A DNA stretch of 64,000 nt. Origin: Desulfuromonadales bacterium (lineage in GTDB: Bacteria > Desulfobacterota > Desulfuromonadia > Desulfuromonadales > JAGXHI01). Position numbers and translations under genes: made by a program. The notes under the pieces are model-generated. The model was not told the origin of the DNA. It did no database searches and worked only from the letters and a program-made list of their open reading frames with translations. Positions 3,560 to 53,975 of the stretch are shown one piece after another; the stretch's first letter is position 1; the number at the start of each line of letters is the position of its first letter. The DNA is taken from assembly GCA_024636295.1 (NCBI GenBank), contig JAGXHI010000028.1, forward strand, positions 21,565 through 85,564, read 5' to 3'.

Positions 3560-4122
3560 CGCTGCGCCCTGGATTTCTCGGTTCCTGTCATTGCATAAGC
3601 GGCCCCACGATCGATCGCTTCCTTGTTAAGAGGAATAAAACCATGATTCCGCTCCGGAAGGACCTCTTTCAGCGCCTCTTTGAGGCTCTCCAGGGACACC
3701 GCTCCGGTATGGGCGACATAGGCTCCCAGAGAAACCATGTTAACCAGTCGGGCATCCCCCGTCTCCAAGGCAAGCTGGTTGGCGGGAAGACGCAGGATTT
3801 CGATATCCTCCCGATTCTCCTCGCCATCGATCAGAGAAGAATTAATCAGACAAAAACCGCCTTTACGGATCCGATGAAAGTATTTATCCATCGAGAGCTG
3901 GTTGAAAAGAAGGCCTGCGCCGGGGCTTCCGATCACCGGGGAACCGACTTCTTCGTCGGAAATGACTACCGTGCAGGTAGCAGCCCCGCCTCGCTTCTCC
4001 ACCCCGTAGGCAGGAAAATAGGAAACGTTTTTCTCTTCGATAATGGCGGCCATGGACAGAAGATTTCCCGCAACCAGAACGCCCTGCCCACCGTATCCCG
4101 CCATGAAAGCTTCGTAATTCAT
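3556..4122 (-). CDS. 2-oxoacid:ferredoxin oxidoreductase, gamma subunit
   Basis: 188 aa. Gamma-subunit-like N-terminus ([15 protein letters not shown]). Linked by a 4-bp overlap to the beta subunit. Substrate specificity cannot be determined from the sequence. Confidence 0.85.
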
Positions 4123-7501: not shown

Positions 7502-7521
7502 TACTCCTCACATTTGGACGC

Positions 7522-7715
7522 GGTACTAATTAGTTTTCGTCCGGAAACGGCCCTTTTCCGCAATCTCCGCGTCAACCCGCGGATTTGATTGTGCGGCGTA
7601 AAGTACTACGCCTCCGCTCAAATCCTTGATTTCCTTGATCTTGCGAAAAATTACTCGTTTCCAGATCGAAAACCGCATTTGTGCTTCCCGGGGTTTCCGG
7701 ACGGGTACTAATTAT
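7522..7715 (+). ncRNA. structured intergenic element, copy 1 (candidate 6S-like RNA; alternative MITE)
   Basis: The core 7538-7703 aligns with 15935-16100 with 13 substitutions and no indels. Closing helix 7538-7548/7693-7703, extended by 7527-7534/7707-7714. Central hairpin ggatttga(7581-7588)/tcaaatcc(7618-7625). Inner helix 7553-7563/7641-7650. The strand call rests on G:U versus A:C positions. Confidence 0.45.
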
Positions 7716-11432: not shown

Positions 11433-13117
11433 TTGGAGGCGACCATTTTAAGGGAATCGGCATAACGTCGAACGGCCCGTGATATGGATTCCGCCGTCTT
11501 CTCCTGGAACCCTTTGTCGATGAGGCGGGCCTCCTCCCGTTTATTGCTGATAAATGCCGTTTCGACCAATACCGAGGGCATCGTCGCTCCCAGAAGCACA
11601 TAGAAGGGACCCTGGCGAACGCCAAGATCCCTGATATTGGAATAGTGGCGTCCGAGGTCATTGACCAGGGATTTCTGGATCTCCGCCGCGAGTCGGCTCG
11701 ACTCGTTGATCTTGGAATTGGCCATCAGATCGAAAAGGATCAGTTCAAGATTCCCGATCTCCTTGAGAGACGTGCCGTTTTCACGTGCAGCGACCGCCGC
11801 AGCCTTCTCATTCTTGGAAAAATTCAGGTAAAATGTTTCGACTCCGAAGGCGCTTCGGTTCGGCGCTGCGTTGGCGTGGATGGAAATAAAAAGGTCCGCC
11901 CCGAACCGATTCGCGATCGCGGTTCTCTCCTCCAGAGGCAGGTAAACATCAGAGTTCCTGGTTAGAATCACCTCGCAACCGAGATCCTGCTCCAATCGAC
12001 GGGCCACGATCTTCGCCATCGCGAGGACAACATCCTTTTCCAACACACCGGAGGGGCCGACGGCCCCTGGATCCTTGCCACCGTGGCCGGCATCCACTAC
12101 GATTCGTCGAAGGCTGAAACCCTCGGACGGTGGAATGCCGACCTTCCCGGGTTTTTCCCTGCCGTTGCTCAGCAGCCTGTCGATACTGCCAGAGGGTGCG
12201 CTCCGAATTTCCGACCTGGCTGCTTTCATTTCAGCACTGCCGGTCACATCCAGAACAATCCGATGCGGATCCTTCAGGTGGAAGATCTTGTAATCGTCGA
12301 ATCTGTTCAGGTCCAGGACGACACGGACATCGTTATTCGCAGGCCTTCCTGTCCGAATCCGTTTCAAAAGGCTGCCTTCCACCTCGAAAGCTTCAGACAG
12401 ATCCCCCGAAGGGGCGGCGTTCCGTATATCCACATAGATCCGGGGAGGTTTTCCCTTTTCGGCGGCTTTCCCGAGAGAGTTGGACTCGAACTCCGCCGGT
12501 CCGGTCAGGTCGATCACGACCCGGGTGTATCCCGGGTTGCTCCAATACCGTATCCCACTCACTTCCACCCTGCCCAGATATTTCTCTGCCGGCGCGGTGC
12601 GAACGGGGGCGAAACGAGCCAGCTCGTCCCTCTTTTTCCTGGCGGAGCCGTTCATGTCTCCAGAGGGGAATTCTTCTGCCGCTTTTCGATATCTCAGATA
12701 GGCTTCCGCCGGGTCTTTAAGGATATTTTCCTGAATTTTTGCCGCAAGCACAAGGGCATCATCCGCAAGGGAACTCTCCGGATAACGATCCGCGATCCGA
12801 TCGAAGATCTCAATGGCCCGGCGTGCGTCTTTTTGTGCCCGGGAAACCTCGTACAGACCGCTGCAGGCCTTTCCACCCAGGTACAGAGCGGAAGGAGCTT
12901 TCGAGGATCGAGGGAAATTTTCGTCCACCGAAAGAAAAGCTTCGATCACGCGGTTCCAGTTCTCCCGATAAAGCTGTTTCCGGGCAGAGGATAGAAGCTG
13001 GCGGTATTCCTCTTTCGCACTCCGATACGCCTTTTCGCCGGAAGAGGCGTCGACCGGGGGAGATGCCAGAAGCAGGAGAAGCACACACGGAAGGAAAATA
13101 CGAAAAAAATTCATCAT
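11429..13117 (-). CDS. N-acetylmuramoyl-L-alanine amidase (AmiC-like) with TPR-like N-terminal region
   Basis: 562 aa. Signal peptide. Amidase_3 motifs VVDAGHGGKDPGA and ADLFISIHANA. Overlaps the glnD start by 4 bp. Confidence 0.85.
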   Translation of the reverse strand: MMNFFRIFLPCVLLLLLASPPVDASSGEKAYRSAKEEYRQLLSSARKQLYRENWNRVIEAFLSVDENFPRSSKAPSALYLGGKACSGLYEVSRAQKDARRAIEIFDRIADRYPESSLADDALVLAAKIQENILKDPAEAYLRYRKAAEEFPSGDMNGSARKKRDELARFAPVRTAPAEKYLGRVEVSGIRYWSNPGYTRVVIDLTGPAEFESNSLGKAAEKGKPPRIYVDIRNAAPSGDLSEAFEVEGSLLKRIRTGRPANNDVRVVLDLNRFDDYKIFHLKDPHRIVLDVTGSAEMKAARSEIRSAPSGSIDRLLSNGREKPGKVGIPPSEGFSLRRIVVDAGHGGKDPGAVGPSGVLEKDVVLAMAKIVARRLEQDLGCEVILTRNSDVYLPLEERTAIANRFGADLFISIHANAAPNRSAFGVETFYLNFSKNEKAAAVAARENGTSLKEIGNLELILFDLMANSKINESSRLAAEIQKSLVNDLGRHYSNIRDLGVRQGPFYVLLGATMPSVLVETAFISNKREEARLIDKGFQEKTAESISRAVRRYADSLKMVASK

Positions 13118-15732
13118 TACACCATTTGTTTCAATTCATTCAAAAGATTCAACGCTTCCAGAGGAGTAAGAACGGAGATGTCAATTTCCTCGAGGCGCCG
13201 CCGAAGTTCACCTGAATCTTCCCTGAACAGCGAGAGTTGGGGCTTCATTTCGGCAACTTCACCCCGTCGGCTGTGGGCAAGTCTCGGATGCCCTTCTTTC
13301 TCGAATTCCCCCGATTCGAGGTTGCGAAGGATTTCGCGGGCGCGCCCGATGACTATTTCGGGAAGACCCGCCAGACGGGCAACCTGTATTCCATAGGAAT
13401 GGCTGGCGCCCCCTTTGACGATCTTCCTGAGGAAAACAATCTGATCATTCCACTCCCGAACGGCGATATTGTAATTTTTCACCCGTTCACGGGTCAATGC
13501 GAGTTCGGTCAGCTCATGATAGTGTGTTGCGAAGAGGGTCTTGGCGGCCACCCGGGGGAAATCATGGAGATACTCGGCAACCGACCAGGCGATGCTGATT
13601 CCGTCAAAAGTCGAGGTTCCCCGTCCAATTTCATCCAGAACGATCAGACTGCGAGAGGTGGCGTGATGGAGGATATTCGCTGTTTCGGTCATTTCCACCA
13701 TAAAAGTGGACTGACCTTTGGACAGGTTGTCACTTGCGCCCACCCGGGTGAAAATTCGGTCCACAATTCCGACAGTAGCCGACCGGGCCGGCACGAAACT
13801 GCCGGTCTGGGCAAGAAGGGTGATCAGGGCGACCTGTCGCATGAAAGTGGATTTTCCCGCCATGTTCGGACCGGTAATAACAAGGATCTGGTTCTCAACG
13901 GAATCCATTTTCACATCATTGGGAACGAACCGTTCCGAGAGCGCCTGCGCTTCAATAACCGGATGCCGGCCGTCGATGATTTCCAAGGCGTTTCCGTCGT
14001 TTACCTCGGGCCGGGCATAATCCCTTTCGTGGGCCAGTTCCGCCAGAGAATACAGCACGTCCAGAACTGCCAGGACTTCAGCCGTTTTCTGGATTCTCTT
14101 CCCCTCCTCCGCTGTCCTGCTCCGGACGGTCTGAAAAATCTCGTACTCAATCTCGACTATTTTTTCCTCGGCGCCCAGTATATTATCTTCGTACTCCTTG
14201 AGGGCAGGCGTAATGTAGCGCTCCGCGTTGGCCAGGGTCTGCTTGCGTACATAATCATCGGGGACCTTCTCGAAGTGTGTCCTGGTCACCTCGATGTAAT
14301 ACCCGAACACCCTGTTGTACCGGACCTTGAGGGAAGCAATGCCCGTTTTCTCCCTCTCCTCCCGCTCAAGCAGGGCGATCCAGCCTTTACCGTCCCGACT
14401 GATTCGTCGCAGGGCATCGAGTTCGGGATCGAACCCGTCCCGAATCAGGCCGCCTTCCCTCACAACAAAGGGGGGATCGTCGACCAGGGCTCCGCCAATC
14501 AAATCGGTTATATCGGTCAGGGGATCGAGTTCATTTCGAAGCTGAATAAGAAGAGAGGATTCCAATCCAGAGACGATCTCGAGAATACCCGGCAACCGGA
14601 GGAGAGAATTTTTAAGGGAAACAAGATCTTTGCCGCCGGCGGTTCCGAGGGAAATCCTGGAAATCAGCCGCTCCAGATCCTGTATCCCATCCAGTGCCTC
14701 CCGAAGATCTCCCCGTTCAAGGCTTTTTTCCAGCAGCTCCTCCACCGCGTCCTGGCGGCCCCGAATTCGCTCCACGTCGATCAAAGGTTGGCCGATCCAC
14801 TGTCTCAAAAGGCGCCCCCCCATGGAAGTGACCGTCCGGTCCATAACCCCGAGCAGAGATCCACGTCGGCTTCCGTCACGCATGGTGGCGGTCAATTCCA
14901 GGTTTCTTCGGGTCGCTTCGTCCAGGATCATGGCATCATGGGCGAAGTAGGTGGCAAGGGGTCGCAGATGCCGGACTCCCTCCTTCTGTGTTTCCTCAAG
15001 ATAGTGAAGAACCGCTCCGGCTGCAGCGATGGCGGCCATCAGTCCAGCGCACCCAAAAGGTTCAAGTGAGGCGCAGGCGTAAAAATTTCTGATACGCTCC
15101 CCGCATCGATCCGGATCGAACGCTTCCAGTGGAAGGGAACTGACCACCCGTTCCCGGAGATTAATGGAAAAATCCCGGGACAGAGATTCGCCGACAGTCC
15201 CCTCGGGAAGAAGAATCTCCCGTGGTTCGATAGATGTGATCTCACTGCGAACCTCGTCGACATCGGCGGTTTCCGTGGTACGGAATTCACCGGTGGTGAT
15301 GTCCAACACAGCTATTCCCCACCGGTTTTCAATGCAGGAGAGCGCCATGAGATAGTGGTTTTCCTTGGGCGTCAACAAATCGGCATCCATCACCAGTCCG
15401 GGGGTGATCACTCGGACAACGTCCCTCTTTACGATCCCTTTGGCGGTTTTTGGGTCCTCCACCTGTTCGCAGATCGCCACCTTGTAGCCCTGCTCGACCA
15501 GGCGTGCGATATACGGTTGACAGCTGTGATAAGGAATCCCGCACAGGGGGACATTGTCCGCCGCCCCCTTGTTCCGGGAGGTCAAGGCGATGTCGAGAAT
15601 TTTACTGGCGGTAAGGGCGTCCTCCATGAACATTTCATAGAAGTCCCCCAATCGGTAAAAGAGGATGGAATCGGGGTATCTGGATTTGATTTCCAGATAT
15701 TGCCGCATCATCGGGGTCGTTGCGGACATCAA
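13117..15732 (-). CDS. mutS: DNA mismatch repair protein MutS
   Basis: 871 aa. [12 protein letters not shown]-terminus, Walker [10 protein letters not shown], and [12 protein letters not shown]. Confidence 0.95.
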
Positions 15733-15923
15733 AACCTCGCTTGGGGAATAAACAATGCAGTCAATCCGAAAGAATCGGATATTTATTCTTTCATTTTTAG
15801 CATGTTATGTTAACAAAACCCACCCTTGCATGTAAATACAATTGGTTCGCCAACTAGAAGTTTCAATGATGTTTCTGAGATTAATGTCAAGAAATTCTCA
15901 TGTTGAAAGAAGCCCTTATAAAT

Positions 15924-16113
15924 GGCGCCCGGGTCGTCCGGAAACGGCCCTTTTCCTCAATCTCTGCGTCAACCAGCGGATTTGATTGTGCGGCGTAAAG
16001 GTCTACGTCTGCGCTCAAATCCTTGGTTTCCTTGACCTTGCGAAAAATGACTCGTTTCCAGATCGAAAACTGCATTTGTGCCTCCCGGGGTTTCCGGATG
16101 AGCGCTAACTATT
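15924..16113 (+). ncRNA. structured intergenic element, copy 2 (paralog of 7522-7715)
   Basis: Same order of helices as copy 1: 15935-15945/16090-16100 with one G:U, and hairpin 15978-15985/16015-16022. A possible sigma70 promoter lies upstream (TTCTCA 15895-15900, 16-nt spacer, TATAAA 15917-15922). Confidence 0.45.
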
Positions 16114-16176
16114 CCCGGGGAATTCTCTTGACCGGTCCAGAATGAGGTGCTAAGAAATTCGCCACCGGAGGATGAT

Positions 16177-16713
16177 ATGGACTGGAAAAATCTCCCGGAG
16201 GAAGACCGACGGCTCTTCGATCCGGAAAATTTTCATATTAAAGACCTGAAGGATGAAATTCAGGCGGATGAACTTTGCGTCAATTTACTGAGAATTTTTA
16301 TCCGAGAAAAGAAGGAAGCGGGAGAATTGAATGCCCATGAAGCTGGCGCTTTGGCAAGCGGAGCGGATTACTTCCTGCGGGACTTTATCATCTCCGATCG
16401 CAGAGAGAATATTTTCAAGGTCGATGCCTTTAGAATTCGTCAGTTCGCCGGCAACTGGTACATCGTCAAAAACATGCAGCCCAACCTTCCTGAACTGAAG
16501 GCGATACTGATGGGAGTCGAAGCTTTCTACGATTTCTGCACAAGGGCGGGAAGGATGGAGCAGGAACGATTTGACGGAATACGAAGGGAGTGCCGTCGCC
16601 TGGAGTACTTCGCGGAAAGAATCGAAAAATTCTGGGCCATCGAGGGAGCAGGCTTTTTTGAATGGGAGCGGGAGTGCTCTCTCAGGATTCCAACCCGCGA
16701 CGGAAAAGAATGA
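16177..16713 (+). CDS. hypothetical protein (about 178 aa)
   Basis: ORF 16147-16713. ATG 16177 is preferred because GGAGGA lies 4 nt upstream. Its stop overlaps the ATG of the CDF transporter (ATGA). No family recognised. Confidence 0.55.
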   Translation: MDWKNLPEEDRRLFDPENFHIKDLKDEIQADELCVNLLRIFIREKKEAGELNAHEAGALASGADYFLRDFIISDRRENIFKVDAFRIRQFAGNWYIVKNMQPNLPELKAILMGVEAFYDFCTRAGRMEQERFDGIRRECRRLEYFAERIEKFWAIEGAGFFEWERECSLRIPTRDGKE

Positions 16714-53839: not shown

Positions 53840-53975
53840 AGAAAATTCCGGACGCAATGTTTCCGGACGGACAGAAATAAACCAGCTGATCATGGTTTGT
53901 CAAGGGTTTTCCGAATCAGGTCTTCCTGCAATCACCTCCCGGATTAACCATCAATAAAACTTTCCTGTGGGCGTT

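Follow-up and report, generated by a model that had tools for sequence, protein, structure and literature searches.

The region at positions 15895-16113 of the window, by which is meant the entire 64,000-nucleotide stretch of contig JAGXHI010000028.1 (Desulfuromonadales bacterium, assembly GCA_024636295.1) that was analysed, is with a probability of about 0.9 a decayed copy of a 176-bp transposable element of the miniature inverted-repeat type (MITE) mobilised in trans by an insertion sequence of the ISNCY type. The original prediction had taken the same DNA for the second copy of a structured RNA element encoded on the plus strand, with a closing helix, an outer helix covarying between the copies and a possible promoter of its own. 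That a second copy exists in the same orientation was confirmed: positions 15934-16112 (copy 2) align without gaps to 7537-7715 (copy 1) with 91 % identity over 179 nucleotides, at a distance of 8397 nucleotides (8.4 kb). No third copy of the element is present in the 64-kb window, where the chance expectation is 0. Of the structured element itself, a discrete repeat with inverted-repeat ends that can pair has remained; a small RNA gene with its own promoter is unsupported.

A dispersed 176-bp element and its partner insertion sequence

The family was found using the minus-strand open reading frame (ORF) of the element as a handle, by means of a profile of the two translations followed by genome scans and a nucleotide profile. 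Scanning of species-representative genomes gave at least 447 confirmed copies, nearly all of them in assemblies of Desulfuromonadales/Geopsychrobacteraceae. One assembly holds 27 of the best 80 loci, and many copies are located exactly at contig ends. A metagenome scan added 170 further copies, among them a divergent subfamily. The ends of the element are sharp: matches to the nucleotide profile span positions 3-170 of a model of 171, with limits within 1-3 nucleotides of each other. The repeat is a discrete unit of 176 bp without a transposase gene. On the minus strand it consists of a 6-bp direct repeat, a terminus starting with GTGTCCATCCGGAAAC, the body, a terminus ending with GTTTCCGGACGAAAAC, and the same 6 bp once more. 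The terminal inverted repeats are 16 bp long and imperfect, GTGTCCATCCGGAAAC and the reverse complement of the opposite end, GTTTTCGTCCGGAAAC, sharing 13 of 16 bases in the consensus. When 64 copies were compared, the 6-bp target-site duplication was perfect in 19 and had at most one mismatch in 33, as against about 1 % for mismatched flank pairs, while direct repeats of 5, 7 or 8 bp gave a poor fit. The target consensus is TAnnTA. Sharp ends, inverted repeats and a 6-bp duplication are together what a DDE transposase leaves behind on cut-and-paste insertion. The MITE family is newly characterised, and the element is of a known kind, namely a non-autonomous DDE transposon. No description of this family was found in the searchable literature, and a DNA search of a plasmid collection with copy 1 gave no match. 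A search of the window against Rfam at the gathering score returned one tRNA only; around copy 2, with E-values of up to 10 admitted, it returned chance-level matches to small nucleolar RNAs with an E-value of at least 3.

A candidate for the partner was found at locus L009, where a 1667-bp element adjoins a MITE copy. The terminal repeat of this insertion sequence, GTGTCCATCCGGAAAC, is perfect over 16 bp, and at the right end 23 of 23 nucleotides agree with the MITE end. The 449-amino-acid transposase that it encodes carries the Pfam domains DDE_Tnp_1 and DUF772 and scores 484.4 bits on the NCBIfam model NF033593 (ISNCY family; cut-off 325), and its close homologues bear the database name ISNCY family transposase. 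Five more copies of the insertion sequence, 1662 bp in length and with the identical 16-bp terminal repeat, bring the number to six. They are located on the 3.7-Mb and 0.83-Mb contigs of one assembly (the transposase is named 'uncultured Desulfuromonas sp.') and on a 155-kb contig, and each of them is flanked by a perfect 6-bp duplication of the TAnnTA type (TAGTTA, TACACT, TAACTA, TACCTA and TAGTTA). The partner transposase is about 50 % identical to those of ISRm17, ISRle10 and ISRsp17 of rhizobia. Beyond the termini, neither similarity nor antisense complementarity was detected between the body of the MITE and the interior of its partner. We take it that ISfinder places such elements in a subgroup of ISNCY with duplications of 6-7 bp. 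In the mechanism that we infer, the DDE transposase of the 1.66-kb ISNCY-family insertion sequence would recognise the terminal repeat common to both elements (GTGTCCATCCGGAAAC, variant GTTTTCGTCCGGAAAC), move the MITE in trans and insert it at TA-rich TAnnTA sites, duplicating 6 bp.

Copy 2 lies, as had been stated, between mutS (13117-15732, minus strand), its left neighbour, and a gene for a hypothetical protein. This right neighbour is a conserved gene of 178 amino acids (16177-16713, plus strand) without a Pfam match. Syntenic copies in related genomes, for which a search had been suggested, were not encountered at the syntenic locus that was found (L163): there the order of mutS, the hypothetical gene and a CDF-transporter gene is kept, the orthologue of the hypothetical protein is 57 % identical, and the element is absent. 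The spacer between mutS and the hypothetical gene is 274 nucleotides long in L163, which is a distant locus and not that of a close strain, versus 444 nucleotides in the window, that is, 268 plus the 176 of the element. A contig of another assembly, ascribed to the genome of the window itself and encoding an identical 178-amino-acid protein, agrees with the window at every base and breaks off within copy 2, at position 16052.

The ends of copy 2 have decayed. At the window-left terminus, the final 4-5 nucleotides have been exchanged, from GTTTT in the family to CCGGG, and the other terminus has also mutated, reading AGCGC where the family consensus has GACAC. One half of the 6-bp duplication, TAACTA, is still present. 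As one terminus and its duplication have been lost, copy 2 is probably immobile. A plus-strand terminator-like site is found at 15931-15950, with a 7-bp GC-rich stem followed by TTTTCC. It exists because the mutated terminus of copy 2 has GGG instead of TTT, and it is not a feature of the family consensus.

Proposed closing helices of the plus strand and a compensated hairpin on the minus strand

The inner closing helix that had been proposed can be drawn in copy 2 as described: CGTCCGGAAAC at 15935-15945 pairs with GTTTCCGGATG at 16090-16100. A single pair, 15936/16099, is G:U, in contrast to G-C in copy 1 (7702 C vs 16099 T). The change from C to U that had been read into this difference runs in the reverse direction, G:U being the family consensus (54 of 64 copies) and the G-C of copy 1 the derived state. 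The two arms are the terminal inverted repeat of the transposon, and the helix shows no covariation: changes in the 64 copies break pairs and are left uncompensated. The arms are pairable in 91 % over these copies, 114 of the 500 shuffles score as high in covariation, and double changes number 19, below the shuffle mean of 26.8.

The arms of the outer helix of copy 2, GGCGC at 15924-15928 and GCGCT at 16102-16106, are indeed complementary, with bulges of 6 and 1 nucleotides, but the pairing is at chance level: a run of at least five pairs arises between two 16-nucleotide flanks in 57 % of pairs drawn at random and in 52 % of shuffles made from the flanks of copy 2. In GCGCT, four bases belong to the end of the mutated terminus of copy 2, and the fifth is the first of TAACTA; GGCGC is plain flanking sequence. 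In copy 1, the outer helix, UAAUUAGU/ACUAAUUA, is mainly the target-site duplication TAATTA. Since TAATTA is palindromic, the two duplications of copy 1 pair with each other, and this makes up most of its outer helix. With the outer helix of copy 1 due to the duplication and that of copy 2 due to chance, there is no covariation between the two.

A conserved structure does exist, as judged from the aligned copies, on the strand opposite to the one proposed and with different helices. The sequence of copy 2 folds on its own with -71 kcal/mol on the minus strand (z -4.7) and with -64.6 kcal/mol on the plus strand (z -2.2). The comparison of folds that had been suggested with the original prediction was run as a family consensus, in which the plus strand folds poorly, at -18 vs -43 to -50 kcal/mol for the minus strand (-17.9 and -42.7 kcal/mol with 64 copies; -18.5 and -50.0 kcal/mol with 30 representatives of less than 90 % identity). 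The covariation term of the plus-strand consensus fold is near zero, and the closing helix is not included in it. The minus-strand fold is dominated by a long imperfect hairpin, HP2, at the base of which an internal copy of the terminal repeat, GTTTTCGATCTGGAAAC, is paired with the right end of the element.

Several observations show that the two arms of HP2 have changed together. Pairing is retained in 96.5 % of the cells (30 representatives), and 11 pairs have changed on both sides, compared with 5.2 ± 1.1 in shuffles; none of 500 shuffles reached the observed value in any of five measures. Sliding the partners by 1-3 columns makes the pairing collapse to 37-53 %. At pair 85-127, 73 copies have GC and 33 have CG, and AT and TA also occur. 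Pairs 67-147, 68-146 and 71-143 have also changed on both sides, so that compensation is not limited to the ends, and in one lineage a 9-bp stretch of HP2 has been rewritten into a perfect helix. The copies from which these figures were obtained are of common descent and were gathered by peptide patterns on the minus strand.

The changes in HP2 depend on the strand. One-sided transitions have produced 172 G·U cells vs 29 A·C cells, a ratio of about 6:1. When only variants present in at least three copies are counted, 16 pairs show the G·U type, as against 2 with the A·C type (p = 0.0013). In the unpaired columns, neither C-to-T nor A-to-G changes were in excess. An asymmetry of this kind, with G·U tolerated and A·C excluded on the minus strand, would be given by selection on a single-stranded form. 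It points to a constraint on the single-stranded form of the minus strand, most likely as RNA, and an RNA-level role is what we infer from it. The orientation of the element with respect to neighbouring genes, as assigned with a crude gene caller, is about random (19 same-strand, 31 opposite, 21 convergent and 11 divergent).

The terminal repeat can also fold on itself. In the family consensus it forms a palindrome, HP1, at element positions 1-29, with equal stability on both strands. The first 34 nucleotides have a mean folding energy of -12.0 kcal/mol vs -5.9 kcal/mol in shuffles; the value for copy 2 is -11.1 kcal/mol.

Alternative readings of the region

An independent small RNA gene on the plus strand, transcribed from TTCTCA-16-TATAAA, closed by the inner helix and extended by an outer helix covarying between the copies, would account for the helices and the hexamers, which are present, and for a plus-strand fold of copy 2 that is somewhat better than that of its shuffles (z -2.2). 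It is at odds with the absence of closing-helix covariation across the 64 copies, with a consensus fold of -18 kcal/mol that has near-zero covariation and leaves the closing helix out, and with outer helices that are a target-site duplication in one copy and chance in the other. As to the promoter, the two hexamers are where they had been placed; a consensus promoter scan does not list them, however, returning minus-strand sites only, and the -10 hexamer TATAAA is without the conserved T at position 6. The candidate lies in flank DNA that is not homologous between the copies and has no counterpart upstream of copy 1, and the motif conserved with the downstream gene is found beyond the element. 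The duplications, the hundreds of copies and the matching insertion sequence, moreover, show transposition. The small RNA reading is largely refuted and has become highly improbable. Hardly better placed, and very unlikely in our judgement, is a multi-copy family of small proteins encoded by the minus-strand ORF of 50-62 amino acids. This ORF is open in both window copies, where a Shine-Dalgarno sequence precedes it (GGAGG-5 nucleotides-ATG), the open frame is kept in 51 of the 64 copies, and 183 predicted proteins of 49-97 amino acids were retrieved from the database with the profile. Against a coding role, codon position 2 accounts for 7 of the 11 differences between the ORFs of copy 1 and copy 2, with 8 changed residues among the 47 shared, and across the 64 copies the three codon positions vary equally (0.049/0.052/0.045), without periodicity. 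The start codon is situated in the most variable segment of the element. The database 'proteins', nearly all unnamed or 'hypothetical' and several of them from one Desulfuromonadales assembly, vary in N-terminus, C-terminus and frame, frameshifted versions included. The apparent substitutions between subfamilies, FSIWKR to FLIWKP and GRFRTKT to GGFRTET (S to L, R to P, R to G and K to E), trace back to base pairs in which both sides have changed in compensation. The small ORFs have no match in Pfam, and an exact database look-up of the copy 2 product returned no record.

A more serious alternative accepts the MITE and confines the relevance of its hairpin to DNA: the arms could, for example, serve as repeated sites of transposase binding, or intrastrand templated repair could maintain a palindrome, and there would be no role for RNA. 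This is a possibility to be reckoned with, even if we think it less probable than its opposite. Because the base of HP2 consists of a terminal-repeat copy inside the element, GTTTTCGATCTGGAAAC, opposite the right end, the covariation could partly reflect protein-binding sites that change together; the random orientation relative to genes agrees with it, and many MITEs are palindromic for historical reasons. It is opposed by the compensatory changes deep inside the hairpin and far from the ends (pairs 85-127, 67-147, 68-146 and 71-143) and by the strand-specific surplus of G·U cells relative to A·C cells (172 vs 29), which has no parallel in the unpaired columns. Were double-stranded DNA the object of selection, the two strands should be treated alike. 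Strong hairpins with strand asymmetry are also known from elements handled as single-stranded DNA, which would suggest either a REP/RAYT-like or IS200/IS605-like hairpin repeat moved by a Y1 (HUH) transposase, or an IS110-type element's non-coding RNA. Those elements have neither target-site duplications nor terminal inverted repeats, whereas here a 6-bp duplication is combined with the repeats of a DDE insertion sequence, and no match was obtained in Rfam. Membership of REP/RAYT or IS200/IS605 is refuted by the 6-bp duplication together with the DDE transposase partner, and the probability left to this group of explanations as a whole is negligible. Going further in the opposite direction, the single-stranded minus strand, as RNA or DNA, might be needed for the spread or persistence of the element, possibly as an RNA acting together with the ISNCY transposase or regulating it, or as a mobile regulatory RNA module kept by the host. 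This is a speculative proposal, and we hold it to be rather unlikely.

Returning to the decayed MITE as the preferred explanation, a number of points weigh against it or against an RNA-level role for its hairpin. Copy 2 has no complete target-site duplication and only one terminus intact, and it is taken for a transposon copy because it belongs to the family and shares 91 % identity with copy 1. At the protein level, the nearest orthologous locus reaches no more than 57 % identity, so the comparison with it is one of spacer length alone. The element body is unlike the interior of the insertion sequence, so it has not been visibly derived from the partner. The collection of copies through peptide patterns on one strand could bias the variants observed, and a roughly random orientation is not what would be expected of a simple role in host mRNAs.

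The locus, related elements and implications

The features of the window discussed here are collected in Table 1.

Table 1 Coordinates of the two MITE copies and of associated features in the window
Feature	Position	Strand	Basis or remark
MITE copy 1, intact ends	7533-7708	-	nhmmer, model 2-176, E 3e-59; between xerD-like gene and apgM
Target-site duplication TAATTA, left of copy 1	7527-7532		Flank comparison
Target-site duplication TAATTA, right of copy 1	7709-7714		Flank comparison
MITE copy 2	15930-16105	-	Family homology 15934-16105; nhmmer, family profile, model 4-172 at 16102-15934, E 8e-56
Left terminal inverted repeat core CGTCCGGAAAC	15935-15945		5' arm of the proposed inner helix
Right terminal inverted repeat core GTTTCCGGATG	16090-16100		3' arm of the proposed inner helix
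TAACTA, remaining half of the 6-bp target-site duplication of copy 2	16106-16111		Fits TAnnTA; left partner absent
HP2, predicted long imperfect hairpin, 133 nucleotides	15934-16066	-	Element positions ~38-176; family consensus fold
HP1, predicted terminal palindrome GTGTCCATCCGG-AAAC-TCCGGATGGACAC (family consensus)	16077-16105	-	Terminal repeat folded on itself; weak in copy 2
ORF of 62 amino acids, GGAGG-5 nucleotides-ATG start	15887-16075	-	Not regarded as a conserved protein-coding gene
Pair of overlapping sigma-70-like sites upstream of mutS	15836-15807 and 15813-15785	-	Promoter scan; between element and mutS
TTCTCA-16-TATAAA, promoter candidate of the original prediction	15895-15922 (TTCTCA 15895-15900, TATAAA 15917-15922)	+	Flank DNA; unsupported
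TTGACC-17 nucleotides-TAAGAA, likely promoter of the 178-amino-acid gene	16128-16156	+	Outside the element; TTGACC-17-TATGAA in L163, at equal distance to the start codon

The sole clearly common motif between the window spacer and that of L163 is TTGACC-17 nucleotides-TA(A/T)GAA, and the window version is probably the actual promoter of the 178-amino-acid gene. Together with the predicted sites upstream of mutS, this would place copy 2 between the divergent promoters of mutS and the conserved hypothetical gene. Genes of the 178-amino-acid type are widely conserved in Desulfuromonadales, always with a gene for a CDF-family cation efflux protein following them. The listed mutS ORF begins at a TTG (15732); alignment with the orthologue suggests that the true start is the ATG of MMRQYLEIK, about 21 nucleotides downstream (site 15711-15732).

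Copy 1 is located between genes on the same strand, 85 nucleotides after the xerD-like gene and 32 nucleotides before apgM, and its co-transcription with these neighbours is plausible from the arrangement. The direct repeat around it exceeds 6 bp, GGTACTAATTA being found on both sides (7516-7532 and 7698-7714). The left flank, GGACGCGGTAC at 7516-7526, resembles the right terminus of copy 1 itself, GGACGGGTAC at 7699-7708, and lies 15-25 nucleotides from the apgM start codon. The extended repeat has the appearance of a remnant left by a second, adjoining copy, or of the outcome of an insertion preference for terminus-like sequence. A 16-mer at 53859-53874 that is similar to the terminal repeat and adjoins a tRNA was discarded: with three mismatches allowed, it is at the chance level of an estimated one match per window.

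Some copies outside the window deserve mention. A predicted protein of 97 amino acids (P0001) translates a stretch in which the element is partly duplicated in tandem. This suggests that a third, rearranged copy exists, probably on the source contig of the window and beyond the limits of the latter. MITE copies arranged head-to-tail with only the duplicated target between them were seen at three loci (L025, ~1946-1967; L007, 1872-1975; L043, ~1190-1205). Such tandem insertion beside an existing end seems typical of the ISNCY (ISRm17-like) transposase group. Copies in metagenome-assembled genomes assigned to Saccharicrinis sp. (L020), Desulfopila sp. (L009) and Chloroflexi (P0109) are on short contigs or at contig ends; their occurrence in assemblies of unrelated phyla is due either to binning contamination by repeat-ended contigs or to horizontal spread. 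On the 4.4-kb metagenomic contig of L009, the DNA to the left of the MITE (1940-1967) and that to the right of the insertion sequence (3817-3845) are exact reverse complements. Either the assembly of this contig is chimeric or folded back on itself, or the inverted duplication is genuine.

The element has the general features of prokaryotic MITEs derived from DDE insertion sequences, such as Correia/NEMIS, RUP and Nezha: these are likewise short, devoid of a transposase gene, bounded by the terminal repeats of a resident insertion sequence and flanked by a duplication of fixed length, and they occur as many dispersed, mostly intergenic copies that can form hairpins. It differs from them in its partner of the ISNCY family, in its 6-bp TAnnTA duplication instead of TA, and in a core unrelated to the partner interior. 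With ISRm17, ISRle10 and ISRsp17, the 'ISNCY-like' elements of rhizobia, it shares related terminal repeats (GTGCCCGTCCATAAAC vs GTG[T/C]CCATCCGGAAAC), TA-rich targets, which in the rhizobial elements contain CTAG, and tandem copies separated only by the duplicated target. Copies of ISRm17 are arranged head-to-tail on the S. meliloti plasmid pHRC017 (L166, 238-278 and 1908-1947), with 6-7 bp of target between them. The rhizobial elements are autonomous, 1.67 kb long and found in Alphaproteobacteria, with an apparent 7-bp repeat TAGTCTA, in contrast to the 176-bp non-autonomous element of Desulfuromonadales.

Two MITEs with a structured transcript or predicted RNA fold are similar in size. The element bcr1 of the Bacillus cereus group is about 155 bp long, is flanked by 5-bp direct repeats, forms a cruciform of two stem-loops and is transcribed, with compensatory changes that keep the RNA structure (PMC3184786). 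The size of about 155-176 bp, the short direct repeats at the flanks and a compensated structure at the RNA level would be common to both elements. The present element differs in having one long hairpin and a terminal palindrome, 6-bp repeats and an identified partner transposase, while bcr1 for its part has been shown to be transcribed. Among known elements, bcr1 is the closest functional analogue. The Chunjie MITE of Geobacter uraniireducens Rf4 measures 178-235 bp and has 21-bp terminal repeats and 9-bp direct repeats (PMC3184786). It comes from the same broad bacterial group, is of similar size, has a stable predicted RNA fold and, like copy 1, has inserted between genes of one operon. Identity with Chunjie is excluded by the 16-bp terminal and 6-bp direct repeats of the present family.

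In conclusion, hundreds of 'hypothetical proteins' of 49-97 amino acids in Desulfuromonadales assemblies are translations of this repeat, which also breaks assemblies at its copies. For the two copies in the window, annotation as a small RNA gene or as a small protein is unwarranted. The MITE and its insertion sequence provide a pair for the poorly studied ISNCY (ISRm17-like) group, for which a terminal repeat, a 6-bp TAnnTA target and a tandem insertion habit are hereby defined. The strand-specific, compensated hairpin is the sole feature of possible interest beyond this group. We know of no transposon in this DDE family that carries a structured RNA; if the hairpin does act as RNA, the element would be one.

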